DNA of 62,595 bases from a virus (Duplodnaviria > Caudoviricetes), in IMG/VR virus record IMGVR_UViG_3300021963_000130, positions 1 to 62,595 of that record; one strand, written 5' to 3'. The notes beneath the pieces were generated by a model. It did not search any database and was not told the DNA's origin. It saw only the letters and a list, made by a program, of their open reading frames with translations. The stretch's first letter is position 1, and every line of letters begins with the position of its first letter. A program made the position numbers and the translations under genes. This document shows positions 7,764-37,262 of the stretch, in pieces.

Positions 7764-7950
7764 CGGATTTTTCTACTTTCTCAGCAAGGTCAAGGAGATG
7801 GCGCTCTGCGATAGCTAGACCCTGAATAACACCGCAAAGTTTTTGATACTCTTCAAAAGTGCGACACCCACCACCAGCGCAGTCATCTGCGTAGTTGTTC
7901 ATGTCGGTACGTATTTTTTCGCGCAATACGCGTGCGAATTCGGAAATCAT
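7756..7950 (-). CDS. Small hypothetical protein
   Basis: EYQKLCGVIQGL helix; coupled to portal and GroES genes. Confidence 0.7.
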   Translation of the reverse strand: MISEFARVLREKIRTDMNNYADDCAGGGCRTFEEYQKLCGVIQGLAIAERHLLDLAEKVEKSDE

Positions 7951-10430
7951 TGTTTAGGCGGCTCCTTTTGTTTGTTGGCCAGATCATGAATGCGCTGCAC
8001 GGACTGCTGGCGCTCGGTCATCTGCATCTGTTCACGCTTGGTCTTTATGTCCCCAGCCTTGCCCATTGCAGAAATGTTTGCCGCTGACTTCTGCTGTTGC
8101 AGTTGACCGGCTTTGTTCATGGCATCAATCTGAAGCCGCTTGTTGTCCAGCTCCAGCCGACCCTGCATCTCTTGCGCCTTGAGCTGCATGTCTTGCTGCT
8201 TGAGCTGGAGTTCTTGTTGCTTGATCTGCAACTCTTGCTGCTGCATCTGGATCATCGGGTCTTGCTGTTGTTGCTGAGCTTGCTTCTGAGCTTGCTGAGC
8301 TTGGCTCTGCTGGAGCACTTGCTGTGCAGCTTGGGCCATCATGCCGGACAACTGAATCTCCATCTCAGGCGGCAGCTTGTCGTCTTCCGGTGGCAGGGGC
8401 ATACCCATCTGCTGCTCAATCTTCTGGCGGTATGCGTACCCAACGTGCTCAGCAACGTGGGCCATCATTGCGCCTTGAATCTGCGGAGCTTTGGGGTTCT
8501 GGCCAATCAGTTCCATGACGATGGGGTCTTGCATCGCCATCATGTGCACCTTGATATGGGACTCATGGTCTTGGTAGAAGAACGCCTTCAGTGGCTCCAA
8601 GCGCAGCGCAGCCATGTTCTCAGACACAGGGTCTTTCGGTTTCTGGTCGTCCGGCAGGGGCACAAGCTTTTCAGCATCCTTGATACCCAACACGCCAAGC
8701 ATCTGCCTGTGAAGCTGGGGCAAGTCGTAAATATCCGGTGCCATTTGAGCCATTTGTATGACTGCTTGGTACTGAACCACTCGTTGACTCATGGTGGCTG
8801 CGTTTGGATCGCTCACGGGGATGATGTCTACGTGGTCGTAGTCAGCAGCCTTGGCCTTGCGTGGGGCATCAATCGGATCGTAGTCATAGTCTGGGTCGGT
8901 GTAGTCGCGGATGATCGCGGCCAGCAGACGCAGCTCTTGTTTGAATGTGTAGTGCAGCCGCGCTTGCACGGCGCTCATGACTTTAAGCTGGCGCTCCAGC
9001 AGAGCCAGTGTGGTGCCCACAGGTGCTTGGGCAGACATGTCCGACACTTTCATGTCGGCAGTGGCTGCAAACCTGCGGCCTTCTTCTACTATCTGGCCAA
9101 GCAGACCCATCAGAACTTGGCTTGGCTCCTTGTACGGCAACGGCAGGATACTGTCGCGCAGCGCACCAGAGCCAATATCTACGTCACGCCATTCTCCGGG
9201 AGCGATGGGGGTGTCGTCGCCTTTGATGCGCATGCCGCGAGATTTAAGACCTCCGGGTAGGTTAGACAGCGTGCCAGCATCAACAAGCTGTCGCATGAGG
9301 CTGGTGGCTGATTTGGCATATCCACCAATGAGATGGAAAAGGCCGAAGCCGTACGCTCCAAAACCCGGAATGTATTGATAGTGAACAAAGTGTTGTCGTT
9401 TGATTTCAAGGGGGTCTTCCTGTTCCCAGTTTCTGCGGATGGCCAGAACATCGTTCGAGCCTTTGATTAGGGTAACTACGTATGGACGTGTAATGCCGGT
9501 CGGTTTGCCGTCGTCATCCTTGTCTTCATCGCCCCTGAGCACCAAGTCAACATGCGACTCATACAGTGTGTAGCGGTCGTCATTTATATCAGAGAAGCCC
9601 GTTTCTTTGTCCTTGGCCTTCTTGATGTTGTCTTGTTCCTTGCTGGGGTCAGGCAACTCAATGTCGCGGTAAAAGCCTGCCTGCTGGAGCTTAACAATCT
9701 CGTTTTTTGTCTTGCGCATGACGTGCGTCAGGCGGTAGCAAGTGTCCAGATCGGATGTGCCATAGGGCAGTAGGATGTCTTCAGCCGGTACAAATATTGA
9801 AATCTGGCGGCCAATGTTGGGGTCGTAGTACACCTTCTTGAACGCCGAACCGGTGGCTGGCAAGCTCCACAGCATGCGCTCATGCTCAGGACGGAACTCG
9901 CGCATGACTTCTGTCAGCTCGTAGTTCATGTCTTCTTCAACGCGGATGGACGCTTCTTTCTTCTCGGGGGTCTCTTTGCCCAGAATCTTTGTACGTACCG
10001 GCCCTTGGGCGGGGAATGTCTCGGTGATGGTCTCTGACTGGAACCGAACCACCGCCTCTGTAATCATGGGGTGGAACACACCAGATGCGCCGTTCCACGG
10101 CTCCGTGCGATCTTCGTACTGCAAGCCCAACAGCTTGATGCCTTCTGTATATGCGCGTTCCCAGTCCTTGCGGGAACTCTTGTCTTGCTCAATGTCTCCA
10201 GCCAACTCAGAAGCCATCTCCATGATGTCATCTTCGGATAGCGTGTCGGCCAAGTTTTCGTCAAACTCGTCGTCCTCGCCTTTACCAATACTGATGTCCA
10301 AGTCCCCGGCGTGGATGTTGACCGCTTCTGGGTCAATGATTTCAATCTCAATGGCTTCTTCCTCTTGGGCAAGGTCATCCATGCTTTGGGGTTGCTGGTA
10401 CAGCGCTTTATCTATATTGGTGGCCATCAT
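7947..10430 (-). CDS. Portal protein (P22-like, Q-rich C-terminal barrel)
   Basis: 827 aa after TerL; GSAFKKVYYD motif; Q-rich coiled C-terminus. Confidence 0.85.
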   Translation of the reverse strand: MMATNIDKALYQQPQSMDDLAQEEEAIEIEIIDPEAVNIHAGDLDISIGKGEDDEFDENLADTLSEDDIMEMASELAGDIEQDKSSRKDWERAYTEGIKLLGLQYEDRTEPWNGASGVFHPMITEAVVRFQSETITETFPAQGPVRTKILGKETPEKKEASIRVEEDMNYELTEVMREFRPEHERMLWSLPATGSAFKKVYYDPNIGRQISIFVPAEDILLPYGTSDLDTCYRLTHVMRKTKNEIVKLQQAGFYRDIELPDPSKEQDNIKKAKDKETGFSDINDDRYTLYESHVDLVLRGDEDKDDDGKPTGITRPYVVTLIKGSNDVLAIRRNWEQEDPLEIKRQHFVHYQYIPGFGAYGFGLFHLIGGYAKSATSLMRQLVDAGTLSNLPGGLKSRGMRIKGDDTPIAPGEWRDVDIGSGALRDSILPLPYKEPSQVLMGLLGQIVEEGRRFAATADMKVSDMSAQAPVGTTLALLERQLKVMSAVQARLHYTFKQELRLLAAIIRDYTDPDYDYDPIDAPRKAKAADYDHVDIIPVSDPNAATMSQRVVQYQAVIQMAQMAPDIYDLPQLHRQMLGVLGIKDAEKLVPLPDDQKPKDPVSENMAALRLEPLKAFFYQDHESHIKVHMMAMQDPIVMELIGQNPKAPQIQGAMMAHVAEHVGYAYRQKIEQQMGMPLPPEDDKLPPEMEIQLSGMMAQAAQQVLQQSQAQQAQKQAQQQQQDPMIQMQQQELQIKQQELQLKQQDMQLKAQEMQGRLELDNKRLQIDAMNKAGQLQQQKSAANISAMGKAGDIKTKREQMQMTERQQSVQRIHDLANKQKEPPKQ

Positions 10431-10436
10431 TTATCC

Positions 10437-11975
10437 TCAGTAGTACGCCGCCACGCGGCGCTTGAAAAATTGGGGTTCGTCTGGCTCATCTATGTCAACT
10501 CTGATGAAGCCGCCTTGTCTGACGCGCATCAGTGCTTGGGAGGTTGTGTCCACAAAGTCATCGTTGTCTCCGTTGGGAAAAGACGCAACCTCTTCAATGA
10601 CTTCGCGTGCCCAGCGTGTGTCAGGTGCCCATACCAACCCAGACGAGAACATGTCGGCAATAGCGTTCAGACGCACTATCTTATCGTTTCCACGGCTCGG
10701 TGTAAATTCCTGCACTGGGATGCCCATGTTGCGCAGCTCTTGGATCAGGGGTGCGCCAGCGGCTTTCTTCTCCACGATGAACGCATCTGGTTCCCACTCC
10801 TTCCAGTGCTTCAGGGCGCAGGCCTTGAGTTCCGGGAACTGCATCCGTTCTTTGAACGCGTCCAGCAGTATCACCTGCGCCTTGTTGTTCTCTTCCTCGT
10901 TGTAGAACACGCCCCATGTTGTACACGCGCTGTAGTCAGATGTGTTCTTTGTCTCGTGCGCCGTGTCCCAACTCTGGACAATGTACTCACAGGACGGCGG
11001 GGTTTCACTTTCCCAGACGCGCCAGCTCTTTCTAGAGATGATTGCCGCAGTGTCGCTGGTAGGCTGCTGCATGTACTGCGCGTTCCAGTACTTGGGATCC
11101 ATTGAGGACTTGGCGCTCAGGAGCGACTCCAGTGGCCACTGCTCTGGCCAGAGGGACTTCTCGTTGTCCGTGCCTTCGTGCAGGATGGCCGGTAGCTCCA
11201 CGATCTCCCATGTGGGGGAGTCAGGATTCTTAACTTGATAATCAATCAGCCGTCCGGTCAAATCCAGCTTGCCCCAGCGCGTCATGATGACAATGATCGC
11301 CCCGCCCGGCATCAGTCGTTGTAGGGGGCCGGTCTGGAACCACGACCACGCCGTGTCGAAGGCGAGTCGGCTATTGGCTTTAACATCTTGTTCAGAATGC
11401 GGGTCATCAATAACAAACAGATCAGCTCCGCGACCAGCCAGAGCACCACCAACACCGGCAGCATAATACTGACCACCAGCAGCAGTAGACCACTTTCCAG
11501 CAGCCTTCTGATCGTCTGCCACAAGCGTTTGAGGAAAGAGTTCATGGTATTGCTCATCGTCCAGTAAGTTTCTGACTCTGCGTCCGAAGTCCTCGGATAG
11601 CGATGCGGTGTGCGTTCCCATGATAATTTTCTTATTAGGGAAATTACCTAGGAAGTATGCGGGGAACAAGTAGCTGGAAAACTCGGACTTACCCATCCGT
11701 GGCGCAATATTGATGATGACGCGCTTCTTTTTACCGTCGATCACGTCCTGAAATATCTTGGCCAGCTTCCTGTGGTGCGGCCCGACTTTGAATCCGGGGT
11801 AGACGTGCTTGGCAAACTCAAGCACGTTGGTGCGCCCAGCCACCAACTTGTACCGCTTCTCGCGCTCCTCCAGCATGTCCATGAGTTCAATCTTCTCTTT
11901 GAGGCTCATGGTAGGAAGAGCACGCTGAATAGCTTGGATCTCTGGTTTGTTTAACGTTAGACTTTCAAGATTCAT
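10437..11975 (-). CDS. terL: Terminase large subunit
   Basis: Walker A APRMGKS, Walker B VIDD, nuclease motifs SWDTA and DDFVD. Confidence 0.95.
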   Translation of the reverse strand: MNLESLTLNKPEIQAIQRALPTMSLKEKIELMDMLEEREKRYKLVAGRTNVLEFAKHVYPGFKVGPHHRKLAKIFQDVIDGKKKRVIINIAPRMGKSEFSSYLFPAYFLGNFPNKKIIMGTHTASLSEDFGRRVRNLLDDEQYHELFPQTLVADDQKAAGKWSTAAGGQYYAAGVGGALAGRGADLFVIDDPHSEQDVKANSRLAFDTAWSWFQTGPLQRLMPGGAIIVIMTRWGKLDLTGRLIDYQVKNPDSPTWEIVELPAILHEGTDNEKSLWPEQWPLESLLSAKSSMDPKYWNAQYMQQPTSDTAAIISRKSWRVWESETPPSCEYIVQSWDTAHETKNTSDYSACTTWGVFYNEEENNKAQVILLDAFKERMQFPELKACALKHWKEWEPDAFIVEKKAAGAPLIQELRNMGIPVQEFTPSRGNDKIVRLNAIADMFSSGLVWAPDTRWAREVIEEVASFPNGDNDDFVDTTSQALMRVRQGGFIRVDIDEPDEPQFFKRRVAAYY

Positions 11976-12564
11976 CGGTGGTTGCCGGTAAGGGAACGCT
12001 AACTTCTATGTCTTCTATTGGCTCTGCGTCTTGCACGCCCATGAACTTGGCCAGCTTCTCTTTGAGCTTGCGGTCGATCTCTTCGTCGGTCAGGTCGGTC
12101 TTCTTGACTTCAATCTTGTCGGTGAAGAGGCCCACTTCGGTGACCTTGCCCAGTAAGCCCAGCGCTTTCAAGCGGATGTTGGCGTTGGGGTTCTCGCATT
12201 CTTCAAGGAGCTTGGCCACGGTGTAGCCACGGAGTTCACGGGCTTGATGCACAAACTCCCAGTCGTAGGCTGTGAGCATACCGACCAAATGCTGCACCGC
12301 AGCAGGCGTTTTGATCTGGGTAAGATGTTCGTGGGTAATTTCTGCTGGCGCGGAAGAGATGAGGTTGGTGAAAGATGCGCGTGCTGCTTGGACTTCGGCT
12401 TGGTTAACCACTGTCTCTGTATCTGCCGCACCCAGACCCTTGAGCCACTCGACCGTGTTTACTTTAGCGTCGATCACATCCGCCGGATGTTCTTTCTCAA
12501 GCGGCGTAGGTTTACCAGAGTGATTGCTCACTTCCGGCTCAAAATCAATAAGGTGGTCTAACAT
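11965..12564 (-). CDS. terS: Putative terminase small subunit
   Basis: Immediately upstream of TerL; RLKALGLLGK...LFT motif. Confidence 0.65.
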   Translation of the reverse strand: MLDHLIDFEPEVSNHSGKPTPLEKEHPADVIDAKVNTVEWLKGLGAADTETVVNQAEVQAARASFTNLISSAPAEITHEHLTQIKTPAAVQHLVGMLTAYDWEFVHQARELRGYTVAKLLEECENPNANIRLKALGLLGKVTEVGLFTDKIEVKKTDLTDEEIDRKLKEKLAKFMGVQDAEPIEDIEVSVPLPATTDES

Positions 12565-12579
12565 CGGCGCATAAGTCCC

Positions 12580-12608
12580 TTGTACCTGCGATGCGCGGAG
12601 TGTATACT
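12580..12608 (+). promoter_or_regulatory. Sigma70-type promoter for candidate sRNA
   Basis: TTGTAC-N17-TATACT. Confidence 0.7.
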
Positions 12609-12627
12609 AATTGTCAGCAGTTGCGCA
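12599..12627 (-). promoter_or_regulatory. Possible divergent overlapping promoter for terS/late operon
   Basis: TTGCGC-N18-TACACT on minus strand, overlapping the plus-strand -10. Confidence 0.35.
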
Positions 12628-12718
12628 ACCGTGGGCCTTGGCCCTGTTGTTCAGATGCTTCTCCTCAGTTGTGCTCCAACTGTTTAATCCCCCGTCAGCA
12701 ATGCCGGGGGATTTTTTT
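12615..12718 (+). ncRNA. Candidate anti-Shine-Dalgarno small RNA (~100 nt)
   Basis: Promoter, hairpin 12625-12650, unpaired AUGCUUCUCCU, hairpin 12666-12682, terminator; no credible ORF. Confidence 0.6.
12686..12718 (+). terminator. Rho-independent terminator
   Basis: AATCCCCCG...CGGGGGATT followed by T-run. Confidence 0.8.
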
Positions 12719-12727
12719 ATGGCTGTA

Positions 12728-12743
12728 TGTCTAGCGTTGGACA
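12728..12743. promoter_or_regulatory. Palindromic operator copy 1 (TGTCTA-GCGT-TGGACA)
   Basis: Same consensus at 20895 and 32245. Confidence 0.55.
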
Positions 12744-13051
12744 TAGGGTTCTTCCAAATTTTTTAGAAATTTTTATGGTGGGTGTGATTATCTTCATAGG
12801 GGGGGTAGTGTCTGTGGAACTCAAACAGGGGGGTTTGAGGTATCTGCGGTATTAAGTATTACAGAAGTGCTGAGAATCGGTGGGGAATAGTGTTCATGTC
12901 AGGCACGACCCAGTTCTACATACAGGGGTGATGGGGGTACGGTGGGGTCTAAGGTATTCGATTATCTCCCATTTTCAGGGTCAGCTAGTACCTCCGTTTA
13001 CCCCCATCTTTACAATAGAGGCATCGGTTAGGGATTGGCTCTGATCGGTAC

Positions 13052-13068
13052 GGGGAACTCACTTCCCC
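13052..13068. repeat. GGGGAA-N5-TTCCCC palindrome copy 1
   Basis: GGGGAACTCACTTCCCC. Confidence 0.9.
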
Positions 13069-13092
13069 ATTCGTTCTTGAAAGGAACACACC

Positions 13093-13518
13093 ATGAAACT
13101 CGCAACACGTACAACCATGATTCACGCTGCTCTTGACTCTGCATTCACCTATGCGGAGAAAGTCGCACTCTTACAGAAAGCATTCGAGGGTAAGGCTGTC
13201 GAAGATATTCGGAATGCAATTCGCCCTGATGTCGCAAGCTACACGAAATATCAGGTGCCGATGATTGACGGCAAGGGTAAGGCTGTCGGCACTAAGGTGC
13301 TGGATAAAGAGCACCCACAGTATGAGAACTGTCGCAAGGCCGTGACGAATCTGGCGAATGACATTGCAGGTAAGACCTCAGAGTCTGTCGAGGAAATCGA
13401 AGTCCCCGAGGAAGTCCTGAAAGCCGCCGAGCGTCTGGCTAAATTGTGCGCTCAGTATGAGGAGTCACGCAAGCTGGCTTCGACTGCTGTTGCTCAGGCA
13501 TTCGCTGCTGCTAAGTGA
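13093..13518 (+). CDS. First early gene, hypothetical protein
   Basis: AAGGA RBS, 141 aa. Confidence 0.8.
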   Translation: MKLATRTTMIHAALDSAFTYAEKVALLQKAFEGKAVEDIRNAIRPDVASYTKYQVPMIDGKGKAVGTKVLDKEHPQYENCRKAVTNLANDIAGKTSESVEEIEVPEEVLKAAERLAKLCAQYEESRKLASTAVAQAFAAAK

Positions 13519-16759: not shown

Positions 16760-16764
16760 TGAAC

Positions 16765-16781
16765 GGGGAACTCACTTCCCC
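16765..16781. repeat. Palindrome copy 6
   Basis: GGGGAACTCACTTCCCC. Confidence 0.9.
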
Positions 16782-16838
16782 ATTGAGGGTTAGCGGTGTG
16801 CCCACTCACACCGCATTCGTAACTGAGGAGTATTAAAA

Positions 16839-18194
16839 ATGAAGACAAACTTCATAGAGTTAGTTGGACAGCTTTCAGACATCTTGGCTGGTAGGACATA
16901 CCATCGTGTGCCTGACATCTATGGTGGCTATGACCTTGTGCGACAGACTGCACCTGCTCGTGACTGGCACGCCAGAGAGCAGATGAAGTACCCGATGCAC
17001 CCCGCCGTGTTGAAAGCACTTGAGCTTGCACCTGAGCATCGTCCCGATGACTGGCACTTGCTCACGCTTGAGTGGCCGCACGTAGCAGCGACAGATACCA
17101 CACGCTTAGCCTACACACGGGACGAGCGTGCTGGCGAGGGCGACCGACAGGTCGTGACTACCGTGGGCAAGTATCTGACGCGGCACTTCAAGACTTTGCC
17201 TGACCATGTGATACGCAACCTCGTTGCGTTGTATGCCGCTGGTGAGTCGTGTAAGTTTGTGCATACGATGGCCGAGATGCTGCACCACCTGCATCGTGGG
17301 CCGCACTCGTGCATGGTCAGTGTGCATGAGGTACGCTGTCGTGACGGTGAGGTACGCCATCCGTATCAGGCATACGATCCGAAGTTCGGCTGGCACATGG
17401 CTGTGCGTATCGAGAACGATGCGACTGTTGGCCGTGCGCTGTGTATCGACAACGGTGTGCATGAGAAGTACTTCGTGCGTACCTATGCCAAGACGGGCGG
17501 GTACTCATACGCTGACGAGAAGCTGCACGCTTGGCTACTTGAGCAAGGGTATAAGCATCGCAACGGTTACATGGACGGCACGAAGATGGCGTACTTCGAG
17601 ACATCGGATGACTTCCTTGCACCGTACATAGACGGCAACCAGCAGCACGTAGAAATCTACAACGATGAGCTACGCATCGACAGCAACGGTGAGTACGAGT
17701 GTGGCAACACCTGCGGTGCACCATCGGGCGGTAATCGCATCGACTGCGAGGACTGCGGTAATCGCTTCGAGGATGGCGATGGGTTCTGGGTCGGTGCGTA
17801 TGAGGACAGCCATGTGTGCGAGTCGTGCGGCAATGACGACTACACCTATGCGTACAGCAGACGTGGGCATCAGCACTACATACGCAACGACAACACTGTT
17901 GCGGTTAACGGTGAGTACTACGATGAGGACTTTCTGTCAGACAACGAGATCGTGTGCTTAGAGAACGGCGAATACGCTTCGCTCGGTGACTGCGTAGAGA
18001 TAGACGGGGACTGGTATGTCAGTGATGACCCTGACGTGTGCTATGCCGAGGATGTCGAGGAGTACCGCTTGAAAGATGACTGCTGGCAGTGCGAGGAGTC
18101 TGGCAACTGGTACAACGATGACAGCAAGCAGGTAATGGTAGATTGCAAGTTCTATCACGAAGACCATGCACCTGAACAAACAACTGAGGAGTAA
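16839..18194 (+). CDS. Hypothetical protein with acidic Cys-rich repetitive C-terminus
   Basis: 451 aa; CEDC, CESC and other Cys motifs in D/E-rich tail. Confidence 0.8.
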   Translation: MKTNFIELVGQLSDILAGRTYHRVPDIYGGYDLVRQTAPARDWHAREQMKYPMHPAVLKALELAPEHRPDDWHLLTLEWPHVAATDTTRLAYTRDERAGEGDRQVVTTVGKYLTRHFKTLPDHVIRNLVALYAAGESCKFVHTMAEMLHHLHRGPHSCMVSVHEVRCRDGEVRHPYQAYDPKFGWHMAVRIENDATVGRALCIDNGVHEKYFVRTYAKTGGYSYADEKLHAWLLEQGYKHRNGYMDGTKMAYFETSDDFLAPYIDGNQQHVEIYNDELRIDSNGEYECGNTCGAPSGGNRIDCEDCGNRFEDGDGFWVGAYEDSHVCESCGNDDYTYAYSRRGHQHYIRNDNTVAVNGEYYDEDFLSDNEIVCLENGEYASLGDCVEIDGDWYVSDDPDVCYAEDVEEYRLKDDCWQCEESGNWYNDDSKQVMVDCKFYHEDHAPEQTTEE

Positions 18195-18197
18195 TCA

Positions 18198-19313
18198 ATG
18201 AATAAGAAATCAATTCTGTACAAGACCCTGACCCGTGCGCTGTCAGTCAAGCGGCCACACAATGGCAAGGGCGTAGCGATGTTTACGACATGGCTTGAAG
18301 CACACATACCTGAGCACCTGCATGAGTGGTATGGCTATGACGAGGCAGGTAACCTGCACGTTGATGCTCGTGTCGATGCCACTCACCGCACGCTGTTCGT
18401 AGCGCACGTTGATACTGTGCACCGTGAGGATGGCGCGAACAAGATCAGGAAGACTGCGGGTAAGTGGTACGCAGACGGTGCTGTACTCGGTGCCGATGAT
18501 GGTGCTGGTGTTGCCCTGCTCATGCACTTGCTGTGCGGCGGTGTACCCGCATACTATGTGTTCACACAAGGCGAGGAGTGTGGTGGTATCGGTGCTCGTG
18601 CGTTAGCTAAAGATGAGCTGTTGTTGTCCGAGTTTGATCGTGCCATTGCGTTCGACAGACGTGGGCTTGACAGTGTCATCACACACCAAGGGTATGGGCG
18701 TTGTTGTTCGGACGAGTTCGCGCAAGCCTTGGCCGATGAGCTGTGCTCGGGCAACGTGCTCATGTATCTGGGTGACGACACAGGTGTGTATACAGACACC
18801 GCTGAGTTTGTTGACGTTATCCCTGAGTGCACAAACATCAGTGTCGGATATAACTACGAGCACAGTGTGCAGGAGGAACTCAACATCCACCACTTCACTG
18901 CGTTGGCCGATGCTGTGCTGACTGTGCCGTGGGATAGCTTGCCGACAACCCGTGACCCCAAGGTCACCGAGAGTAAGTGGGACAGCATGGGCTACGGTGC
19001 GCCATCAGGTGCGTGGTCTAAGAACTGGTGGGCTGACTACAAGGACGATCTACCAGCGCCAGCGGTTAACGACACCTACGAGCAGGCAGTCGAGGATGCC
19101 CTGTATGACGCGATGCTAGGTATCTACACAGGGCTTGTTGACATCATCGCTGAGTGTGTGTACCCAGAAGACCCGACCTTGGCCAAGCGCAGCATACGTA
19201 GGTCATCGCTGACCGATGAGCTGTTGGCCGATGCCATGATGTCACTGCGTGAGGGAGAAGACCCAGAGAACATCTTGCTGTGGCTGTATGACGAGGCGTA
19301 CTGCGAGATTTGA
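18198..19313 (+). CDS. M28/M20-family metallopeptidase-like protein
   Basis: AHVDTV, GADDGAG, GEECGG, AFDR and late EH metal-binding motifs. Confidence 0.8.
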   Translation: MNKKSILYKTLTRALSVKRPHNGKGVAMFTTWLEAHIPEHLHEWYGYDEAGNLHVDARVDATHRTLFVAHVDTVHREDGANKIRKTAGKWYADGAVLGADDGAGVALLMHLLCGGVPAYYVFTQGEECGGIGARALAKDELLLSEFDRAIAFDRRGLDSVITHQGYGRCCSDEFAQALADELCSGNVLMYLGDDTGVYTDTAEFVDVIPECTNISVGYNYEHSVQEELNIHHFTALADAVLTVPWDSLPTTRDPKVTESKWDSMGYGAPSGAWSKNWWADYKDDLPAPAVNDTYEQAVEDALYDAMLGIYTGLVDIIAECVYPEDPTLAKRSIRRSSLTDELLADAMMSLREGEDPENILLWLYDEAYCEI

Positions 19314-19368: not shown

Positions 19369-20103
19369 ATGACTCCTGCTATTTCAGAGATGGTTAAGCG
19401 AGTAGGGTTTGACCCTGCTTCGTATACATGGATGGACTTGTCTGTTCTGCCTGAAGGCTTCAACGCAGCAAAGCTGCTAACAGAATACGGCGTGTTGGAT
19501 CAGAAGATTTATCTTGATACGCTGCACTTTCCCTTTCCAAACACGGTGCTGGTATCCAACAAAGTTGAAGAAACAGTAATAACAATATCAACACGCAACA
19601 CAGGAGAAATAGTGGTTGAAATATGGGGAAAAGAAGCAGTACCAGTCGGTGCTTGGACACCTGAAGACGGGTTCAAGATGCACCCTGCATGGGTAGAGTT
19701 TGCAAAGGATAACCCGCATTTGTTTGACACACCTGAAGTGATAGGGGAAATAATTACATCCCGCATATCGGTCTTAGAAGCATTGATGTTGTACGCCGCT
19801 AAGAAAGGTTCTGTGGTGCAAGGCCATAAGTGTTTGAGTACCAGAGCAAGCAACATGAAGCGCATAAAGAAAGGCAAGAAGCTGGTGTATGAATGGAGCA
19901 CGATAGAAATCAAACCAGCAATGCACGTTGACAAAGCAACAGAAACAGGGAGGACACACGAGACACCGCGCCTACATGAAGTCAGGGGACACTGGGCGGT
20001 TAGAAAGAAATCAGGTAAGAGGTATTGGGTTAAATCCCATAAACGTGGCGACCCTACCAAAGGCGCTGTATTCCATGACTACACAACAGGAGAAGCACAA
20101 TGA
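19369..20103 (+). CDS. Phage hypothetical protein with C-terminal HxxRGHW...WVxxHxRG motif
   Basis: PRLHEVRGHW...YWVKSHKRGD; AAGGA RBS. Confidence 0.75.
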   Translation: MTPAISEMVKRVGFDPASYTWMDLSVLPEGFNAAKLLTEYGVLDQKIYLDTLHFPFPNTVLVSNKVEETVITISTRNTGEIVVEIWGKEAVPVGAWTPEDGFKMHPAWVEFAKDNPHLFDTPEVIGEIITSRISVLEALMLYAAKKGSVVQGHKCLSTRASNMKRIKKGKKLVYEWSTIEIKPAMHVDKATETGRTHETPRLHEVRGHWAVRKKSGKRYWVKSHKRGDPTKGAVFHDYTTGEAQ

Positions 20104-20953: not shown

Positions 20954-21490
20954 ATGCCAGACTTAAAGAGTGAGATGAGTAAGGTTCTCGAAGCATGGGA
21001 ACAAGACGATCAACAAACACAGGAGAAGCAAGTGCAAAACACATCACCGCAGCTATTCAAACCAACTAACAACGTAACGCTTGAGACATTCAACTACGTG
21101 CGTGACAACCCGAACAAACTCAGCGGCGAGATACGTGCCGCAATGACAGCGCGAGGGTTCAACACAGGGTCAGTGGGTTCGCTCATCACGCAGTTCACAA
21201 AGCAAGGACAGTTTGCAAAAGACCACAACGGCAGGTATAGCGTCATCGTGCCCGAGTACACACCACTGAAGTCAACCAAGAATTTCAGAGCAGAGGGCAA
21301 GCGCACGAACAAGATCGTGCAGATCAAGAGCAAGCCAAAGAGTGCAGGCATCGCCGCTTTGCAGGTCGATACTACGCCAGTGAGTTTGTCGGTGTCGTGG
21401 GTAAAGAGAGAAGTAGAAATCATAAACAGTTTGAGTGTGATGCAAGCACGATCACTGTACGATGCCCTCAAGAAAATCTTTGGAGGTTGA
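20954..21490 (+). CDS. Hypothetical protein, possible winged-helix domain
   Basis: AAGGAGAAAGCA RBS; second RBS and in-frame GTG at 21032. Confidence 0.75.
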   Translation: MPDLKSEMSKVLEAWEQDDQQTQEKQVQNTSPQLFKPTNNVTLETFNYVRDNPNKLSGEIRAAMTARGFNTGSVGSLITQFTKQGQFAKDHNGRYSVIVPEYTPLKSTKNFRAEGKRTNKIVQIKSKPKSAGIAALQVDTTPVSLSVSWVKREVEIINSLSVMQARSLYDALKKIFGG

Positions 21491-24411: not shown

Positions 24412-24590
24412 AAACCAAACAAGAAATCAAAGACGAAATCATTGAACTGTACGGGGCTACGCAAGCCTTGGGCGATGCAATGAACATACTACATGCACAG
24501 CGCATGGAGAAAAGCAAACAAATGATGGCGCTGAACCACATGCTCAAAGAGATGGATGGCGACGAATCTGAGGAGAAGATCAATGCTTGA
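24408..24590 (+). CDS. Hypothetical protein
   Basis: AAGGAGAAG RBS. Confidence 0.7.
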   Translation: MKTKQEIKDEIIELYGATQALGDAMNILHAQRMEKSKQMMALNHMLKEMDGDESEEKINA

Positions 24591-26929: not shown

Positions 26930-28893
26930 CAAAACCATTTGATCGGATATTAACGATTGATCTAGAGACTCGGTGGGACAAAAAAGAATATACGTTATCA
27001 AAGATGACGACAGAGGAGTACATACGTGACAAGAGATTCAAAGCATTTGGAGTATGCGTACATGAATTCGGAACCGATGATCCTATTGAATGGATTGGAG
27101 GAGATGGACTATCTGAATACTTTTCTGGAGTCGACTGGGGACGAACCGCAGTGCTTGCGCATAACGCACAGTTCGATGTCTCAATTATGGAATGGGTATA
27201 TGCCGCTAAACCCGCCTTCATCTTCGATACATTATCAATGGCACGAGCTTTACGTGGCGTGGAAGTTGGTAATTCCCTCGCCAAACTTGCAGCAGATTTT
27301 GGACTGCCTGCTAAAGGAACCGCTGTCAACAGCACAAACGGTTTACTACAGTTGGGACTGGACATTGAACAAGAACTTGCCGAGTACTGTGCGCATGACG
27401 TGTACCTGTGCGAAGAAATCTTCAAGCGACTCTCAGCAGGTTATCCCAAATCCGAACTGCGTCTGATAGACATGACGCTCAAGATGTACACACGACCACA
27501 GCTTGAGCTTGACAGCAAGATGCTCATCAAAGCATTAACAGAAGAAGGAGAACTACGTGAAGGATTACTTCAACGACTCGGCATACAAGAGGCTGAGCTT
27601 GCATCGAACCCGAAGTTTGCTGACGTACTTCAAAAACTCGGGGTTACTCCCCCGACTAAGGTCAGTAAAACTACCGGCAAAGAAGCGTTCGCTTTCGCCA
27701 AGAATGATGCCATGTTCCAAGCGTTGCTCAACAGTGAACGTGAAGATGTTGCCCTCCTTTGTGAAGCACGCCTTAAAGTTAAATCCACGACAGAACGAAC
27801 AAGGGCACAGCGATTTCTTGACATCAGTCAGCGCGGCAAACTACCGGTTCCGCTATCGTATTACGGTGCTCTCTCGGGCCGCTGGACGGCAGCAAAGGGT
27901 AGTGCCATCAACATGCAAAACCTCAAGCGCGGAAGTTTCTTACGCAAAGCAATTATGGCTCCCGATGGCTACCAACTCGTCGTCGGTGATCTTTCGCAAA
28001 TTGAGCCGCGAGTCCTCGCGTGGCTCGCAGACTATGCAGATATGCTTGACATCTTCCGCGCTGGTGGTGACCCTTATGCGGCATTCGGTAGCCAGATGTT
28101 CAACATACCCGATCTCACCAAAGAGTCTCACCCCGATCTCCGTCAATCGGCGAAGAGCGCACTGCTTGGCTGCGGCTATGGATTGGGTTGGGCTTCGTTC
28201 GCGTCGCAACTTCTCGTAGGGTTCCTTGGTGCGCCGCCGGTACGGTACGACAAAGCGTTTGCCAAGAAGCTGGGGGTCGATCAGGCGTACGCCGAACGCT
28301 TCCTTGACTGGGATGACAACGTGACCAAGATGCTGGAGATACCGCACACCTGTACACAGCAGGAGCTGTTGACCCACTGCCTTGCGGCTAAACGGATCAT
28401 CGACATCTACCGCGCCACTGCCCACCCCGTTACTACCTTCTGGGACATGTGCTCACAGCTTATCGAGGACAGTTTGTATGGGGGTAAGGTGTACCAGTAC
28501 AAGTGTTTGACATTCAGCAAGGAACGTATAGAATTACCAAACGGGATGAGCTTGCTCTACCCCGAACTCAGACGCACAAAAGATGACAAAGGTAGGAGCC
28601 AGTGGGTATACGGGCCAAACGCTACCAAGCTGTATGCAGGAAAGTTGACCAATAACGTTACGCAGGCCGTAGCGCGTATTGTCATGACCGATGGAATGTT
28701 GAGGGTATCGAAGAAGTACCCCGTGGTAGGCACAGTGCACGATGAACAGATCGTGTTGGTGCCTGATGCAGAAGTCGTTGAAGCCAAGCCTTGGGTCTTG
28801 GGCCAGATGACATTGGAGCCAAAGTACTTGCCGGGGATACCTCTGGCCGCTGACGGTGGTGCACACCGTAGATATGGAGAAGCAAAACAATGA
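26926..28893 (+). CDS. polA: Family A DNA polymerase with 3'-5' exonuclease
   Basis: ExoI DLET, ExoII HNAQFD, ExoIII YCAHD; motif A DLSQIEPR, motif B RQSAKSALLGCGYG, motif C VHDE. Confidence 0.95.
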   Translation: MTKPFDRILTIDLETRWDKKEYTLSKMTTEEYIRDKRFKAFGVCVHEFGTDDPIEWIGGDGLSEYFSGVDWGRTAVLAHNAQFDVSIMEWVYAAKPAFIFDTLSMARALRGVEVGNSLAKLAADFGLPAKGTAVNSTNGLLQLGLDIEQELAEYCAHDVYLCEEIFKRLSAGYPKSELRLIDMTLKMYTRPQLELDSKMLIKALTEEGELREGLLQRLGIQEAELASNPKFADVLQKLGVTPPTKVSKTTGKEAFAFAKNDAMFQALLNSEREDVALLCEARLKVKSTTERTRAQRFLDISQRGKLPVPLSYYGALSGRWTAAKGSAINMQNLKRGSFLRKAIMAPDGYQLVVGDLSQIEPRVLAWLADYADMLDIFRAGGDPYAAFGSQMFNIPDLTKESHPDLRQSAKSALLGCGYGLGWASFASQLLVGFLGAPPVRYDKAFAKKLGVDQAYAERFLDWDDNVTKMLEIPHTCTQQELLTHCLAAKRIIDIYRATAHPVTTFWDMCSQLIEDSLYGGKVYQYKCLTFSKERIELPNGMSLLYPELRRTKDDKGRSQWVYGPNATKLYAGKLTNNVTQAVARIVMTDGMLRVSKKYPVVGTVHDEQIVLVPDAEVVEAKPWVLGQMTLEPKYLPGIPLAADGGAHRRYGEAKQ

Positions 28894-29222
28894 CAACACT
28901 ACATGAAGGGCTTGCAATAGGCCACGCAAGGGCAAACGATGCGGCACTGCACGCAGGAGATAGCTGGGTCTCAACGGCTGTCGAGGCATTTAGGGCACAC
29001 GCGCTTACCAACCAGTGGTTTACAACAGAACAAGTTAGGCAAGCGTACCCCGATCTGCCTGAACCACCTGACAAACGTGCATGGGGCGCAGTGCCTCGGC
29101 TTGCACAGCGAGAAGGAATTGTCACGCCACATGGTTGGGTACGCGCCAGCAGCCCGACAGTGCACGGCATGGTAGTGACGCTGTGGAAATCAAGTACATA
29201 CAGAGGAGAAGCAAAACAATGA
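28890..29222 (+). CDS. Hypothetical protein
   Basis: GGAGAAGCA RBS; flanked by 18-bp direct repeat. Confidence 0.7.
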   Translation: MTTLHEGLAIGHARANDAALHAGDSWVSTAVEAFRAHALTNQWFTTEQVRQAYPDLPEPPDKRAWGAVPRLAQREGIVTPHGWVRASSPTVHGMVVTLWKSSTYRGEAKQ

Positions 29223-30633: not shown

Positions 30634-30651
30634 AACAATCGGAGAAGCATT

Positions 30652-32211
30652 TTGGAAATCCTTGAAGACAAGGCACTAATATTCAGAACCAGAAACCCAG
30701 ACAAGTACAGCATCATTCCAAAGCACAAAGTCATTGAACGTGATGACGGTGGGTTCGATGTCGCTGTCTACTGGGGACTGGACGAATGCAGAGTGCTACG
30801 CAACCTCGGGGTGAAGGACGTACCTTCACCAATCACACGCCGCTATAAGTGGCCGGGCAGGTACAAGCCTATGCAGCATCAGATCGAGACGGCAGCGTTC
30901 TTGACGATGCACCGCAAAGCGTTTGTGTTCTCAGAACCCGGCACAGGTAAGACGCTTGCTGCACTGTGGGCGGCTGACTACCTGATAAGCATTAAACACG
31001 TACGCCGTGTTTTGATCTTGTGCCCACTATCCATCATGCAGTCTGCATGGCTGGCTGACCTGAGCAACAGTATCATCCATCGCTCTGCCATCGTCGCGCA
31101 CCACCCCCAAGCTAGTCGCAGGATTGAAATGATCCAGCAGGACTACGAGTTCGTCATCGCTAACTACGAAGGACTGAACCTAGTAGCTGATGAGATCAAC
31201 GCTGATGGGCGCTTTGATCTGGTGATCGTGGATGAAGCCAACGCATACAAGACGGTGACAACCAAACGCTGGAAGGCACTGAAGTCAATCATCAAGCCAA
31301 GCACGCACGTATGGATGATGACCGGTACTCCAGCATCGCAGTCGCCAGCAGATGCGTACGGCTTGGCCAAGATCGTGAACCCTGAAGGTGTGCCCAACTT
31401 CTACACGTCATGGCGCGACAAAGTGATGAACAAGATTACGCTGTACAAGTGGGCACCGAAAGCCAACGCAGCCGATCTGGTACACGAAGCACTGCAACCA
31501 GCGATACGGTTCAGTAAAGCGCAGTGCCTTGACTTGCCGCCCGTGCTGACCACAACACGCGAAGTACCACTGACACCACAACAAGCCAAGTACTACAACT
31601 TGTTGAAAGATCGTATGCTGGTGCAGGCCGCTGGCGAGACGATCAGCGCAGTCAACGCTGCCGCTGGTGTAAGTAAGCTCTTGCAGATCAGTTGCGGTGC
31701 TGTGTACACAGACGACAAAGAGGTTGTCGAGTTCGATGCTGGCCCACGGCTTGGCGTGCTGGAAGAAATACTGGATGAGACAGATCGCAAGGTAATCATC
31801 TTCGCGTTGTTTCGTTCAAGCATCGACACCATACAAACGCATCTGACAAAGAAGAACATCCCCAACGAGTGCATACACGGCGGCGTAGCTGCCAACAAAC
31901 GCGCTGACATCATTCACAGGTTCCAGCATGAAAAAGAACCAAGGGTGCTGGTGATGCAGCCACAAGCAACGGCACACGGGATTACCCTGACTGCTGCCGA
32001 CACGGTGGTGTTCTTTGGGCCGCTGATGAGCGTGGAGCAGTACATCCAGTGCATAGCAAGGGCTGACCGCAAGGGACAGAACTCAGACAAAGTTACTGTT
32101 ATTCACATCCAAGGCTCACCAATTGAAAAGAAAATGTTCAAAGCACTGGAAGGGAAAGTGAGCGATAACTTACTTTTGACCCAGATGTTTGAGATAGAAA
32201 TAAATTCTTGA
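30652..32211 (+). CDS. SNF2-family helicase
   Basis: PGTGKT, DEA, MTGTP, Q..AR..RKGQ. Confidence 0.9.
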   Translation: MEILEDKALIFRTRNPDKYSIIPKHKVIERDDGGFDVAVYWGLDECRVLRNLGVKDVPSPITRRYKWPGRYKPMQHQIETAAFLTMHRKAFVFSEPGTGKTLAALWAADYLISIKHVRRVLILCPLSIMQSAWLADLSNSIIHRSAIVAHHPQASRRIEMIQQDYEFVIANYEGLNLVADEINADGRFDLVIVDEANAYKTVTTKRWKALKSIIKPSTHVWMMTGTPASQSPADAYGLAKIVNPEGVPNFYTSWRDKVMNKITLYKWAPKANAADLVHEALQPAIRFSKAQCLDLPPVLTTTREVPLTPQQAKYYNLLKDRMLVQAAGETISAVNAAAGVSKLLQISCGAVYTDDKEVVEFDAGPRLGVLEEILDETDRKVIIFALFRSSIDTIQTHLTKKNIPNECIHGGVAANKRADIIHRFQHEKEPRVLVMQPQATAHGITLTAADTVVFFGPLMSVEQYIQCIARADRKGQNSDKVTVIHIQGSPIEKKMFKALEGKVSDNLLLTQMFEIEINS

Positions 32212-32260: not shown

Positions 32261-32279
32261 AACAAAACAGGAGAAGCAA

Positions 32280-32684
32280 ATGGACGAACAACAAGTCCCG
32301 TTCGATAAACTGGTGAAGGTCTACCGCAAGATGAAGCTGGAGATCGACACGCTGACACAAGAGTACGACACCAAGGTGGAGTTACTCAAAGCGCAACAAG
32401 ATGAAATCAAGTTCGCTATCAAAGACCAGATGAAGGCACTCGGTGTCTCATCTGTAAAGAGTCCCTTTGGGACGGTATCCATGATGACGAAGACGCGTTA
32501 CAACACGCAGGACTGGTCGTCGTTCAAGGAGTTCATCCTTGAGCACGGCGTAGTTGATCTGCTGGAGAAGCGCATCGCTCAAACCAACATGGCTACCTTC
32601 CTTGAAGAGAATCCGGGGGTTGTACCTCCGGGATTGAATTCAAACACTGAGTTTGAAATCCGTATCACCAAACCAACCAAGTGA
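32280..32684 (+). CDS. Replication-region coiled-coil protein (possibly Gam/Gp157-like)
   Basis: AGGAGAAGCA RBS before ATG 32280; coiled N-terminus. Confidence 0.6.
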   Translation: MDEQQVPFDKLVKVYRKMKLEIDTLTQEYDTKVELLKAQQDEIKFAIKDQMKALGVSSVKSPFGTVSMMTKTRYNTQDWSSFKEFILEHGVVDLLEKRIAQTNMATFLEENPGVVPPGLNSNTEFEIRITKPTK

Positions 32685-37114: not shown

Positions 37115-37262
37115 ACGGGGGCAGGGGTTCTTTGTACCCTGCCTCGACACGGAGGCAATCAAACGTGAAGGCTTGAACAAGGCGCTATCTCTGCGCCTGT
37201 TCGATGCCCGAGCCATACCGTGCGTTCGAGGTGGCCTTATCGGGGTATGGTTCTATCGGTAG
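37074..37262 (+). CDS. Small hypothetical protein (YPW...FFVP)
   Basis: GGAG RBS; last gene of early arm. Confidence 0.6.
   Translation: MKQLSIRYPWKGLERGQGFFVPCLDTEAIKREGLNKALSLRLFDARAIPCVRGGLIGVWFYR

Follow-up and report, generated by a model that had tools for sequence, protein, structure and literature searches.

A stand-alone RNA gene between the two arms

Phage temporal control is usually put down to transcription and, in T4, also to proteins that cut or mask early messages. The phage DNA analysed here (IMG/VR record IMGVR_UViG_3300021963_000130, 62,595 nucleotides, hereafter the window) carries a non-coding unit between its divergent early and late arms. A sequence-only reading had picked the unit out as a candidate sRNA antisense to the extended Shine-Dalgarno (SD) of early genes. 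The stand-alone RNA gene occupies 12580-12718 of the window on the + strand, and the following features were assigned to it and to its late neighbour.

11965..12564, - strand: terS, the first gene of the late arm, named from its position before terL (no PHROG hit)
12580..12608, + strand: sigma-70-like promoter, with -35 TTGTAC at 12580-12585, a 17-bp spacer and -10 TATACT at 12603-12608
12614..12718, + strand: predicted sRNA of about 105 nt, with a 5' end placed by reference to the -10 box
12616..12659, + strand: hairpin 1, 5' and variable, with core GGGCC/GGCCC at 12633-12644, from folds and relatives
12656..12666, + strand: seed UGCUUCUCCUC, complementary to GAGGAGAAGCA
12666..12682, + strand: hairpin 2, CAGUUG-UGCUC-CAACUG, arms 12666-12671/12677-12682, then U-rich UUUAAU
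12686..12718, + strand: intrinsic terminator as folded, 9-bp stem 12686-12694/12705-12713 and U7 tail

The promoter, the CAGTTG/CAACTG hairpin and the U-tailed terminator were all located where they had originally been described. Relatives were gathered via the terS protein, and 412 and at least 585 related stretches encoding it were present in IMG/VR, all from uncultured aquatic phages. Among 90 distinct promoter regions (137 loci), TTGNNN stood 17 bp from TATACT or TACACT in 87 and 18 bp away in 2; the geometry was therefore kept in 89, with L075 the one outside the pattern. The spacer varied in sequence by clade while its length was constant. At the other end of the unit, the GC-rich hairpin at 12686-12713 leads into a T7 run at 12712-12718, and at least six T were found in this run in nearly all relatives. 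Read on the - strand, the same hairpin leads into ATTAAAC, which makes the terminator a one-directional one. A generic promoter and terminator scan called neither element in the region, which, judging from its stated criteria, is explained by a -35 hexamer that matches 3 of 6 consensus positions and by a terminator loop above the limit of the scan.

No conserved ORF was seen by eye at the locus in relatives, on either strand. Coding on the minus strand was considered, as an ATG follows an SD-like complement in some clades only (for example the L056 group and L010), and was rejected because the ORFs there comprise 8-24 codons and appeared unconserved by eye.

A covariance model of the RNA (R1) scored 82.2 bits at 12614..12718, its sole match in the window, and found a single copy in each phage record, in every case upstream of terS (84 sources, 1.01 Mb). 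The unit was also recovered by pattern at 77 of 80 relatives' loci; of the three misses, two had flanks shorter than 130 nt, and the covariance model recovered the remaining one, L062. Outside this family the RNA had no counterpart in the collections searched: Rfam 15 gave no match at gathering score across the whole window, ARAGORN called no tRNA or tmRNA in it, and blastn of 12400-13200 against 50,697 phage records returned nothing. The closest named phages by TerL (DSL-LC04, 023Pt_psg01, HTVC027P and others) share at most 53% identity and differ in layout around terL, and the covariance model found no match in two 8-kb pieces taken from them.

None of the runs listed as containing the stretch is recorded as RNA. 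Four possible-RNA runs, two of them flagged as probably DNA, were compared with the region as contigs. Short contigs from these runs covered 12541-12700 (X19), 12550-12770 (X20) and 12583-12722 (X23); they carry neither strand nor transcript ends, and those of X19 and X20 begin upstream of the predicted 5' end.

Secondary structure and strand of the RNA

The predicted fold of the window copy was unusually stable (dG -40.7, z = -3.56), and none of 200 shuffles was as stable. Across 79 distinct copies, 95.6% of pair cells could pair, compared to 71.5% in shuffled and 46-63% in slid controls, and compensatory changes were found at 10 of 11 pairs; no shuffle out of 500 matched any of these measures. 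In hairpin 2, all five pairs showed changes on both sides and 93.8% of cells paired, while the terminator had compensatory changes in 5 of 6 modelled pairs, with 97% of cells pairing. Hairpin 1 was expanded, shortened or deleted among relatives and was absent from some (L024, L041, L048); its form in relatives is GGCAA-GCAG-UUGCC, with or without an inserted GGCC-loop-GGCC tip. The alignment contained 56 G-U cells and 4 A-C cells, which identifies the + strand as the RNA. The conservation, the structural covariation and these strand-specific G-U pairs together support the original proposal of a stand-alone sRNA of about 100 nt, as far as sequence comparison can do so.

An accessible, lineage-specific seed

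The seed tract contains columns, TTCTC.T, that were invariant across 54 variants. Its unpaired probability exceeded 0.5 in 78 of 80 copies, with a mean of 0.54 in the window and a family median of 0.69. The core had been described as unpaired throughout; this holds for UCUCCU, which is free, but not for UGCU, which pairs with AGCA at 12616-12619 in the minimum-energy fold of the window. At least eight seed variants were found in more distant relatives.

The order of promoter, UGCU-pyrimidine box, 5-6 bp hairpin and terminator resembles that of boxA, boxB and a terminator, and the unit faces the early arm, 375 nt before its first ORF. It might thus be a leader or attenuator of the early operon, or a nut-like antitermination site (in which a linear box serves host Nus factors and a phage N-like protein reads the boxB hairpin), rather than a free regulator. 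We regard this as extremely unlikely. Eight variants of the box occur across the clades, which is not what a site read by conserved host Nus factors would show, and the terminator is strong and strictly conserved. A distinct conserved palindrome with TTGACA lies downstream of the unit, as does an A/T-rich block, and these could serve the early arm. Neither a leader nor a nut-like site explains the co-variation with distant start regions described below, and the region has no Rfam match.

Complementarity to early start regions

The sequence complementary to the seed recurs at the starts of early genes. AGGAGAAGCA occurs in the window four times on the + strand (20088, 21021, 29204 and 32269) and once on the - strand, at 12665, which is the seed itself. 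The corresponding + and - counts were 6 and 1 for GGAGAAGCA, 4 and 0 for GGAGAAAGCA, and 10 and 1 for AGGAGAAG. On recount, the motif numbers and the start codons previously named downstream of the motifs proved right, as did the single late case, GGAGAAG at the 56489 start, which belongs to a 52-aa membrane-like ORF. With gene starts taken from a simple in-house caller, the predicted targets are dispersed at 2.6-20 kb from the sRNA gene and number about 10-25 start regions, including those below.

16821..16841, + strand: start region with AACTGAGGAG (10 nt), start 16839
18180..18200, + strand: start region with ACAACTGAGGAG (12 nt), start 18198
20088..20102, + strand: start region with AGGAGAAGCA, start 20100
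24568..24585, + strand: start region with CTGAGGAGAAG (11 nt), start 24583
28876..28892, + strand: start region with GGAGAAGCA, start 28890
29203..29221, + strand: start region with GAGGAGAAGCA (11 nt), start 29219; type B orthologues have AAGGAGAAAG
30641..30654, + strand: SNF2-helicase start region, GGAGAAGCAT-tTTG, start 30652; the best-supported target
32269..32282, + strand: start region with AGGAGAAGCA, start 32280 of a 134-aa protein with a weak Mu Gam-like match

The site at 18180..18200 pairs with the 3' half of the seed together with the 5' arm of hairpin 2. Orthologues of the 16839 start region in G001 and G002 read AACCGAGGAG, fitting their own seed flank CUCCUCGGUU, and type B orthologues of the 32280 start region read AGGAGAAAGCA.

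Counting against the pairing, only one of the window's six GGAGAAGCA sites continues with the U that its own seed flank (GAUGC) would pair with; the other five do not.

Early and late start regions were compared by seed duplex energy, as had been suggested when the unit was described. A dG of -12 or lower was reached by 26 of 54 early but only 2 of 40 late start regions; at -14 the numbers were 11 and 0, and at -16 they were 7 and 0. Permuted seeds gave a mean of 4.4 early regions at -12, and none of 1000 reached 26. With CUCC fixed and only the flanks permuted, the mean rose to 7.1 and again none (of 500) reached 26. The two classes also differed in the base after GGAG, which was A in 23 of 34 early sites, compared to T in 9 and A in 1 of 12 late sites. 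Duplexes calculated with a 32-nt piece of the sRNA had very low energies that arose through opened hairpins, and these were excluded from the evidence.

SD strength alone accounts for part of the difference between early and late genes, since early genes pair better with the canonical anti-SD tail (median -8.5 versus -6.1 for late genes). Most early sites share just 7-8 nt (AGGAGAA or AGGAGAAG), matches that are hard to separate from an SD followed by an A-rich spacer. Some cassettes are identical well past the seed complement (GGAGAAGCAAAACAATG twice and GGAGAAGAACACATG twice), and their identity beyond it is unexplained by pairing.

Co-variation of seed and target among relatives

The seed variants allowed each sRNA to be set against its own and foreign start regions. 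In five genomes with a CUUCUCC seed, the counts of GGAGAAGC:GGAGAAAGC were 7:4, 7:2, 6:2, 6:3 and 4:0, whereas in 13 genomes or loci with a CUUUCUCC seed they were 1:4, 1:6 and 0-1:1-2. Pooled over representatives, the ratio was 20:9 for CUUCUCC and 2:10 for CUUUCUCC (Fisher p = 0.005).

In a matrix of own and foreign duplexes over early start regions, the own sRNA fitted better than foreign ones, with a diagonal residual of -1.49 kcal/mol; 4 of 40,320 permutations were as low, and with six distinct seed types the figures were 1, 9 and 1 of 720, although the relatives are non-independent and these permutation figures overstate the number of evolutionary events. The late-gene control gave 176 and 697 of 5,040 and, given the former, was not flat. 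Two seed types showed no advantage of the own sRNA: type C, where it ranked 3 of 6 (L103), and type G, where it ranked 5 of 6 (L119).

The clearest single case was the SNF2-helicase start region. In eight of nine genomes it matched its own sRNA exactly over 10, 10, 11, 12, 12, 10, 10 and 12 nt, compared to 5-6 nt with sRNAs whose seed is of a foreign type and 8-11 nt with flank variants of the same type; the match was equalled by 2 of 720 permutations. The site thereby tracks seed types A (in three flank variants), B and E. In the ninth genome, G009, the seed match was only 4 nt. The enrichment at early starts and this co-variation lend support, at the level of sequence, to the earlier claim that the core addresses a shared extended ribosome-binding site (RBS) of early genes, and to its expectation that the seed would co-vary with the early RBS of each genome.

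An alternative is that the sRNA aims at host messages, as a host shut-off device, and that the early genes merely copy the RBS taste of the host in each clade. A CU-rich seed would indeed pair with any strong AGGAGAA-type host site, and clades with different seeds may have different hosts. Such an explanation nevertheless appears very unlikely. Late genes of the same phages use GGAGU, which such a host taste would not predict, and the flanks tracked at the SNF2 start (GCAU, GCAAC, GCAAAUG, GAAAGCA and GAGAGAGAAACA) are too specific for a general preference. Self-targeting would moreover be costly unless wanted.

Proposed mode of action

We consider it probable that 12614-12718 (+) encodes a trans-acting base-pairing sRNA that silences the early class by pairing with its RBSs. 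In this proposal, host RNA polymerase would transcribe the sRNA from its own sigma-70-like promoter, and the transcript would end at its own intrinsic terminator. With a dispensable hairpin on its 5' side and a conserved module of hairpin, U-rich linker and terminator on its 3' side, the pyrimidine stretch UGCUUCUCCUC would be exposed. It would pair with the SD and the bases flanking it on either side (GAGGAGAAGCA or shorter forms) at many early and replication starts of the + arm, the SNF2 helicase being the most conserved predicted target, while late structural genes with GGAGU-type sites would escape. Pairing at the RBS would block 30S binding, and translation of the early class, probably also its stability, would decrease as the RNA accumulates. 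The outcome would be a feedback or early shut-off device. The gene, its strand and structure, the accessible seed, the early-specific complementarity and the co-variation were established in silico; from them we infer transcription, repression, its timing and the part of any chaperone. If correct, this would be an RNA-only route to control of the early class, through an address carried in its RBSs.

A candidate for a phage RNA polymerase was also sought, but the 3045-aa ORF and eight other large proteins had no such PHROG match.

Comparison with known systems

In T4, the start regions of early genes are cut at GGAG by the nuclease RegB (consensus GG*AGRAYARAA), late messages escaping, and RegA binds about 30 start regions (PMC3014915). 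The likeness to RegB (with S1) and RegA lies in the use of an early extended SD, GGAG with an A-rich 3' side, as a class address for post-transcriptional shut-off, but the effectors there are proteins and the candidate effector here is an RNA. This precedent, and the A-rich sequence that follows GGAG here too, allow for the possibility that the extended early RBS is the address of a protein, either a RegB/S1-like nuclease or a RegA-like repressor, and that its copy in the sRNA gene is a - strand decoy or operator in the late leader. We give that only a slender chance. The promoter, the U-tailed terminator and the G-U pairs (as against A-C) all lie on the + strand, which makes the strand antisense to the motif the functional RNA. 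Furthermore, the 49 early or + strand proteins, most of which had no family, gave matches to 17 Pfam families, and neither RegA nor RegB was one of them.

The favoured sRNA is closer in kind to the c4 RNAs of P1 and P7, in which exposed stretches pair around an RBS and block translation (PMC12197685 and PMC8198154). The specificity of c4 rests on a few bases that differ between related phages along with their targets, giving rise to heteroimmunity, and c4 lies in the operon of its target (c4-icd-ant), which it controls in a temperate plasmid prophage (PMC12197685, PMC8198154). Both are phage small RNAs with an RBS-directed exposed stretch and target-linked variable bases, which are predicted in the present case. 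Unlike c4, the RNA here has a gene, a promoter and a terminator to itself, dispersed targets and no Rfam match, and occurs with no lysogeny genes seen among the 49 proteins. Since integrase, recombinase and partition families were all absent from the 17 families found in these proteins, the carrier-state role once suggested for the RNA, or a role in lysogeny, found no support.

A similar layout is known from mycobacteriophages of Cluster K, whose start-associated sequences (SAS) are AGGAG-containing repeats 3-7 bp before start codons in the non-structural half of the genome. They have one orientation save for a single reverse copy, and their discoverers did not decide between an RNA and a protein as the reader of the motif (PMC3203893). 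The likeness is one of layout only: the SAS motif GGGATAGGAGCCC is 13 bp long, nearly invariant and found in temperate phages, compared to (G)AGGAGAAGCA here. When seven of the phages were aligned, four of them (Anaya, Adephagia, Niklas and Biglebops) had the reverse copy in a hairpin loop within conserved non-coding sequence. This loop was diverged or deleted in Amohnition, Krueger and Yuna, while the forward motif was unchanged. Searches of five records (Anaya, Amohnition, Krueger, Biglebops and Yuna) gave 13-18 forward copies each. No co-variation was seen among these phages.

A bacterial parallel can be found in sRNAs of the RsaE/RoxS type, host metabolic regulators with C/U-rich seeds that pair, through short UCCC motifs, with the SD of many messages. 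An unpaired pyrimidine motif, a terminator-ended small RNA and a regulon reached via the RBS are common to both. The present RNA differs in coming from a phage and in having a 10-12 nt seed that reads the SD and flanks of the phage's own genes.

A phage sRNA aimed at many of its own early start regions was not found described in Rfam or in the literature consulted, which included part of the review PMC12197685. If the proposal is right, an RNA stands in place of RegB or RegA, and RNAs might be sought behind other unexplained start-associated motifs.

Possible type-specific exclusion

The address differs by lineage, with at least eight seed types and matching flavours of start region, and the RNA could therefore act as a type-specific exclusion device. 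In a cell already infected by one type, a second genome of that type would then have its early genes silenced on arrival, and other types would be spared. It is a tentative suggestion that the RNA and the early ribosome sites form a co-evolving lock and key of this kind, which would be heteroimmunity based on an RNA in phages that appear to be lytic. Seed and target vary naturally at the SNF2 helicase (types A, B and E) and so provide ready-made compensatory mutants, and orthogonal pairs of seed and RBS are possible parts for synthetic translation control.

Position of the RNA gene relative to the late transcript

The ATG of terS at 12564 lies 16 nt from the -35 box at 12580. To include the terS start, a late transcript must begin beyond 12580 on the - strand and run through the sRNA gene in the antisense direction. 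The main job of the RNA could then be in cis, as an antisense to the late operon or through promoter interference with late transcription; head-on transcription and an RNA duplex of full complementarity would hold the late genes back. Several features fit such a role. No conserved - strand -10 box was seen by eye within the sRNA gene, no U-tail follows the terminator hairpin on the - strand, which would allow leftward read-through, and a - strand promoter-like site is present at 12814-12787.

We nonetheless judge a main role in cis to be unlikely. Complementarity in cis does not depend on sequence, and the constancy of the 11-nt stretch amid drifting hairpins would be unexplained, as would the co-variation of the seed with start regions 4-20 kb away. 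The GATAAT box of the promoter-like site (12792-12787) is kept only in near relatives of the window; this candidate block is missing from other clades, and the late promoter was not placed. Lambda OOP and P22 sar are short, terminator-ended, cis-antisense phage RNAs that act only on the overlapping transcript. The RNA here resembles them in being antisense to the late leader and differs in that its conserved part co-varies with distant sites.

A cis role is compatible with the trans-acting role that we favour. The geometry itself, which the sequence-only reading did not mention, means that every late transcript with the terS start on it must have the sRNA as its antisense.

Location and fold of the sRNA unit

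The window is an IMG/VR virus record in full (62,595 nt; estimated completeness 97%). A simple ORF map divided it into two arms, with late genes on the - strand and early/replication genes on the + strand. After the portal gene the late arm continues with structural genes and then across the ends of the record as far as 37237, and the early/replication arm spans 13093 to 37262. The sRNA unit sits in the 528-nt divergent gap, adjoining the terS start.

Features of the sRNA unit and of the two arms
12580-12585, + strand: -35 box TTGTAC (from sequence)
12603-12608, + strand: -10 box TATACT, after a 17-nt spacer (from sequence)
12666-12682, + strand: hairpin 2, CAGUUG/CAACUG (from sequence)
12686-12713, + strand: GC-rich hairpin leading into T7 at 12712-12718 (from sequence)
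start 12564, - strand: terS, 199 aa, first gene of the late arm (named from its position)
10437-11975, - strand: TerL (PHROG 38, E 5e-102)
7947-10430, - strand: portal, late arm
26926, + strand: DNA polymerase, early arm
30652, + strand: SNF2-type helicase, early arm
34223, + strand: primase/helicase, early arm

The promoter, hairpins and terminator described in the sequence-only reading were all found in place, and its motif counts were recovered from the window. AGGAGAAGCA occurs once on the - strand of the record, opposite the proposed seed. For the RNA at 12614-12718 the fold energy is -40.7 kcal/mol (z = -3.56), and none of 200 shuffles was as stable. Of the 15 bases previously taken to be unpaired, only UCUCCU stays free in this fold, because the seed's UGCU is paired with the RNA 5' end. 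A generic promoter/terminator scan of the window did not list the unit; going by the scan's criteria, this is because the -35 box matches the consensus at 3/6 positions and the terminator loop exceeds the permitted size. The unit had no match in Rfam and no tRNA was found.

Two further features of the late arm were observed. An upstream ATG, 9 nt before that of terS, opens a 4-codon mini-ORF (ATG CGC CGA TGT TAG, 12573-12559, - strand) which overlaps the terS start and lies in a stretch kept in relatives with the window's seed type (type A); translational coupling may operate here, where the late operon begins. The arm is closed by a 3045-aa ORF (37237-46374, - strand), which matched no PHROG family at E <= 0.001 and has counterparts of 2461-2708 aa in relatives.

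Conservation among relatives

A terS protein search of IMG/VR returned 412 related stretches, of which the best 80 (64-98% identity) were kept. The unit was extracted by pattern from 77 of these 80 loci, giving 56 distinct sequences with the window included. Two of the three misses had under 130 nt of flank, and a covariance model, constructed on 54 variants, later recovered the third (locus L062). When a 64%-identical terS served as query, a second scan found at least 585 relatives, of which 80 were kept, and added more distant clades. Across 1.01 Mb of sequence the model found a single copy in each record, in every case upstream of terS; in the pieces of the nearest named phages that were searched it found none. 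At E <= 0.01 it matched 80/81 sources, a locus truncated by a contig end (L125) scoring E 0.19, and 79 distinct copies formed the pairing set.

Standard pairs occupied 95.6% of pair cells in the 79 copies, compared with 71.5% in shuffles and 46-63% with slid partners. Ten of the 11 pairs had changed on both sides, and 0/500 shuffles reached any of the five measures. This alignment was fitted to the covariance model; RNAalifold on a plain MAFFT alignment already gave 9/11 compensatory pairs. G-U cells outnumbered A-C cells by 56 to 4, an excess expected only if the folded molecule is the + strand, which places the RNA on that strand. The distance from TTGNNN to TATACT/TACACT was 17 bp in 87 and 18 bp in 2 of 90 distinct promoter regions (137 loci), this geometry being kept while the spacer sequence varied between clades. 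As judged from these comparisons, the unit in the window is a genuine phage sRNA gene, conserved and not filed before. Its constant module, on the aligned copies, is the seed, hairpin 2, the U-rich linker and the terminator; the 5' hairpin (hairpin 1) is left out because it is expanded, shortened or absent depending on the relative.

The base of hairpin 1, GCAAGCAGTTGC, is widely kept. Its tip carries an optional insert, TTGGCC-TTTG/TTCG-GGCCAA, in several separate clades (e.g. L014, L023, L047, L056 and L124), which represents either repeated expansion or a small mobile hairpin.

Complementarity of the seed to early start regions

The seed columns TTCTC.T were invariant in the first 54 variants. 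Unpaired probability had a median of 0.69 in the tract and 0.31 in the remainder of the RNA; the tract was above 0.5 in 78/80 copies. Its complement on the - strand is an SD-like sequence; inspected by eye, no start codon or ORF followed it consistently among relatives.

Start regions were taken from our own caller, which relies on canonical SD words to choose a start and makes no use of the seed. At a duplex energy of <= -12, the 17-nt seed region bound 26/54 early and 2/40 late start regions, in keeping with the earlier claim of an sRNA antisense to early-gene RBSs; at <= -14 there were 11 early and 0 late duplexes, and at <= -16, 7 and 0. Random-order seeds of the same composition gave a mean of 4.4 and a maximum of 23, with 0/1000 reaching 26. 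When CUCC was fixed and the flanks permuted (mean 7.1, maximum 20), 0/500 reached 26; therefore the seed flanks fit those of early SDs. The base after GGAG was A in 23/34 early sites, and at late sites T in 9/12 and A in 1/12; neither base lengthens pairing with 16S rRNA. The longest exact seed match was 12 nt (18180), followed by 11 nt (29203 and 24568) and 10 nt (20088, 21021, 30641, 32269 and 16821). Counting against the seed reading, the canonical anti-SD tail also binds early genes better, most early sites have just 7-8 nt in common, and some RBS cassettes are identical past the seed complement.

ORF 20954-21490, whose own start is GGAGAAAGCA-ATG, contains a perfect AGGAGAAGCA (21021-21034) and, after it, an in-frame GTG located 26 codons in, at 21032. 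This GTG could be where translation truly starts, or else a second, internal start. The one late start of GGAGAAG flavour, 56489, has an RBS of early type and belongs to a 52-aa membrane-like ORF (MGWIAALVLVGLML..., 56489-56331 region, - strand); this lysis-region gene may share the early address.

Co-variation of seed and targets

More distant relatives carried the seed types CUUUCUCCUU (B, a large clade), ACUUCUCCUUU (C), GCUUCUCUUGG (D) and GUUUCUCUCUCUUGG (E), as well as F, G and H. Ten fuller records were retrieved. In the early arms of 5/5 type A genomes, GGAGAAGC outnumbered GGAGAAAGC (7:4, 7:2, 6:2, 6:3 and 4:0), whereas GGAGAAAGC was the commoner in 13/13 type B genomes or loci (1:4, 1:6, then 0-1:1-2). 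After pooling of representatives, the counts were 20:9 for A and 2:10 for B (Fisher p = 0.005). From type A to type B orthologues, the start region of gene 32280 changed from AGGAGAAGCAA to AGGAGAAAGCA, and that of gene 29219 from GGAGAAGCA to AAGGAGAAAG. Gene 16839 has AACTGAGGAG with seed flank CUCCUCAGUU in the window, and AACCGAGGAG with seed flank CUCCUCGGUU in two relatives (G001 and G002).

In 8/9 genomes the exact match between the SNF2-helicase start region and the genome's own sRNA was 10-12 bases long (GGAGAAGCAT, GGAGAAGCAAC, GAGAAGCAAATG, GGAGAAAGCA and GAGAGAGAAACA), compared with 5-6 bases for sRNAs of foreign seed type and 8-11 for same-type flank variants; the exception, genome G009, matched over 4 nt. 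The SNF2 match sum was reached in 2/720 permutations of six representatives, a figure which, like those below, counts sites and not independent events, because related genomes share ancestry. In a matrix of sRNAs against early start regions, with row and column means subtracted, the own pair was better by 1.49 kcal/mol (4/40,320 permutations as low, eight representatives); with six distinct seed types, 1, 9 and 1 of 720 permutations were as low. The own sRNA ranked first in 4/6 of the first set, type C being third and type G fifth. Late start regions gave a weaker signal (176 and 697 of 5,040) than early ones in the same seven genomes (1/5,040).

Seed and target flavours shifted together in ratios, orthologues, the SNF2 site and the matrix, with types C and G and G009 as exceptions, which supports the shared RBS address of the sequence-only reading. 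Taken together, this is strong comparative evidence that the sRNA reads early-gene ribosome sites, and the several distinct states seen at one orthologous site (SNF2) are its strongest single argument. Three other readings were weighed: a host-directed sRNA, an early RBS serving as an address read by a protein, by analogy with T4, and a leader or nut-like element. None of the three accounts for both the SNF2 tracking and the + strand signals. Any late transcript that includes the terS start has to run antisense through the sRNA gene, which makes a cis role likely as well, either by head-on interference or by duplex formation with the late leader; on its own, such a role accounts for neither the seed invariance nor the co-variation with distant sites.

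Proposed mode of action and comparison with known systems

The reading to which we commit is that the phage RNA, presumably transcribed from this unit, would be a trans-acting anti-RBS sRNA. Pairing over the SD and its flanks would keep 30S subunits off early and replication messages and repress them, with the SNF2 helicase message as the foremost target and GGAGU-type late messages spared. The 3' module consists of a hairpin, a U-rich linker and a terminator with 7 or more U, the usual arrangement in chaperone-dependent sRNAs; we infer both any chaperone use and the timing of action. Lysogeny-type immunity found no support in the gene content, because no integrase, recombinase or partition family was present among 49 early or + strand proteins. 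Early shut-off or feedback would fit better, and type-specific exclusion between co-infecting relatives is possible.

GGAG with an A-rich 3' context marks T4 early messages for RegB/S1 cleavage, and RegA acts at about 30 start regions (PMC3014915). The c4 RNAs of P1 and P7 show type-specific pairing at an RBS (PMC12197685, PMC8198154). The present sRNA would share with T4 the class address of early messages, and with c4 the RNA effector and type specificity; in the portions of the literature covered, a review included, the two were not found described together.

In Cluster K mycobacteriophages a start-associated motif, as yet unexplained, has one copy in reverse orientation (PMC3203893). In Anaya (L188, JF704106.1) the single reverse motif lies at locus 39871-39883 (about 59870-59882 of the record), in the 385-nt gp96-gp97 gap, within the loop of a GCGCGG/CCGCGC hairpin; an invariant TAGACT box and covarying hairpins lie upstream of it. 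The surrounding region was conserved in 182 mycobacteriophage records. An anti-motif RNA is possible in the Anaya group, and co-variation does not support it, since the loop is diverged in Amohnition and Krueger and deleted in Yuna while the forward motif is unchanged (13-18 copies each).

Other elements in the divergent gap and early arm

A palindrome, TGTCTAGCGTTGGACA (12728-12743), comes directly after the sRNA terminator. Most relatives retain it in the form TGTCyAnCGnTnGACA, and an A/T-rich block resembling TTTTTATAAAATTT comes next, reaching about 12779. One half reads TTGACA/TTGGACA, and for the early arm the palindrome is a candidate for both operator and -35 box. An exact 22-nt repeat (13050-13071 and 16763-16784), comprising the hairpin GGGGAA-CTCAC-TTCCCC and ATTCG, lies 20-55 nt before the early starts 13093 and 16839. 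In relatives a different but still paired hairpin precedes the first early gene, and the repeat may stabilise the 5' end, or else act as a terminator or as part of a promoter.
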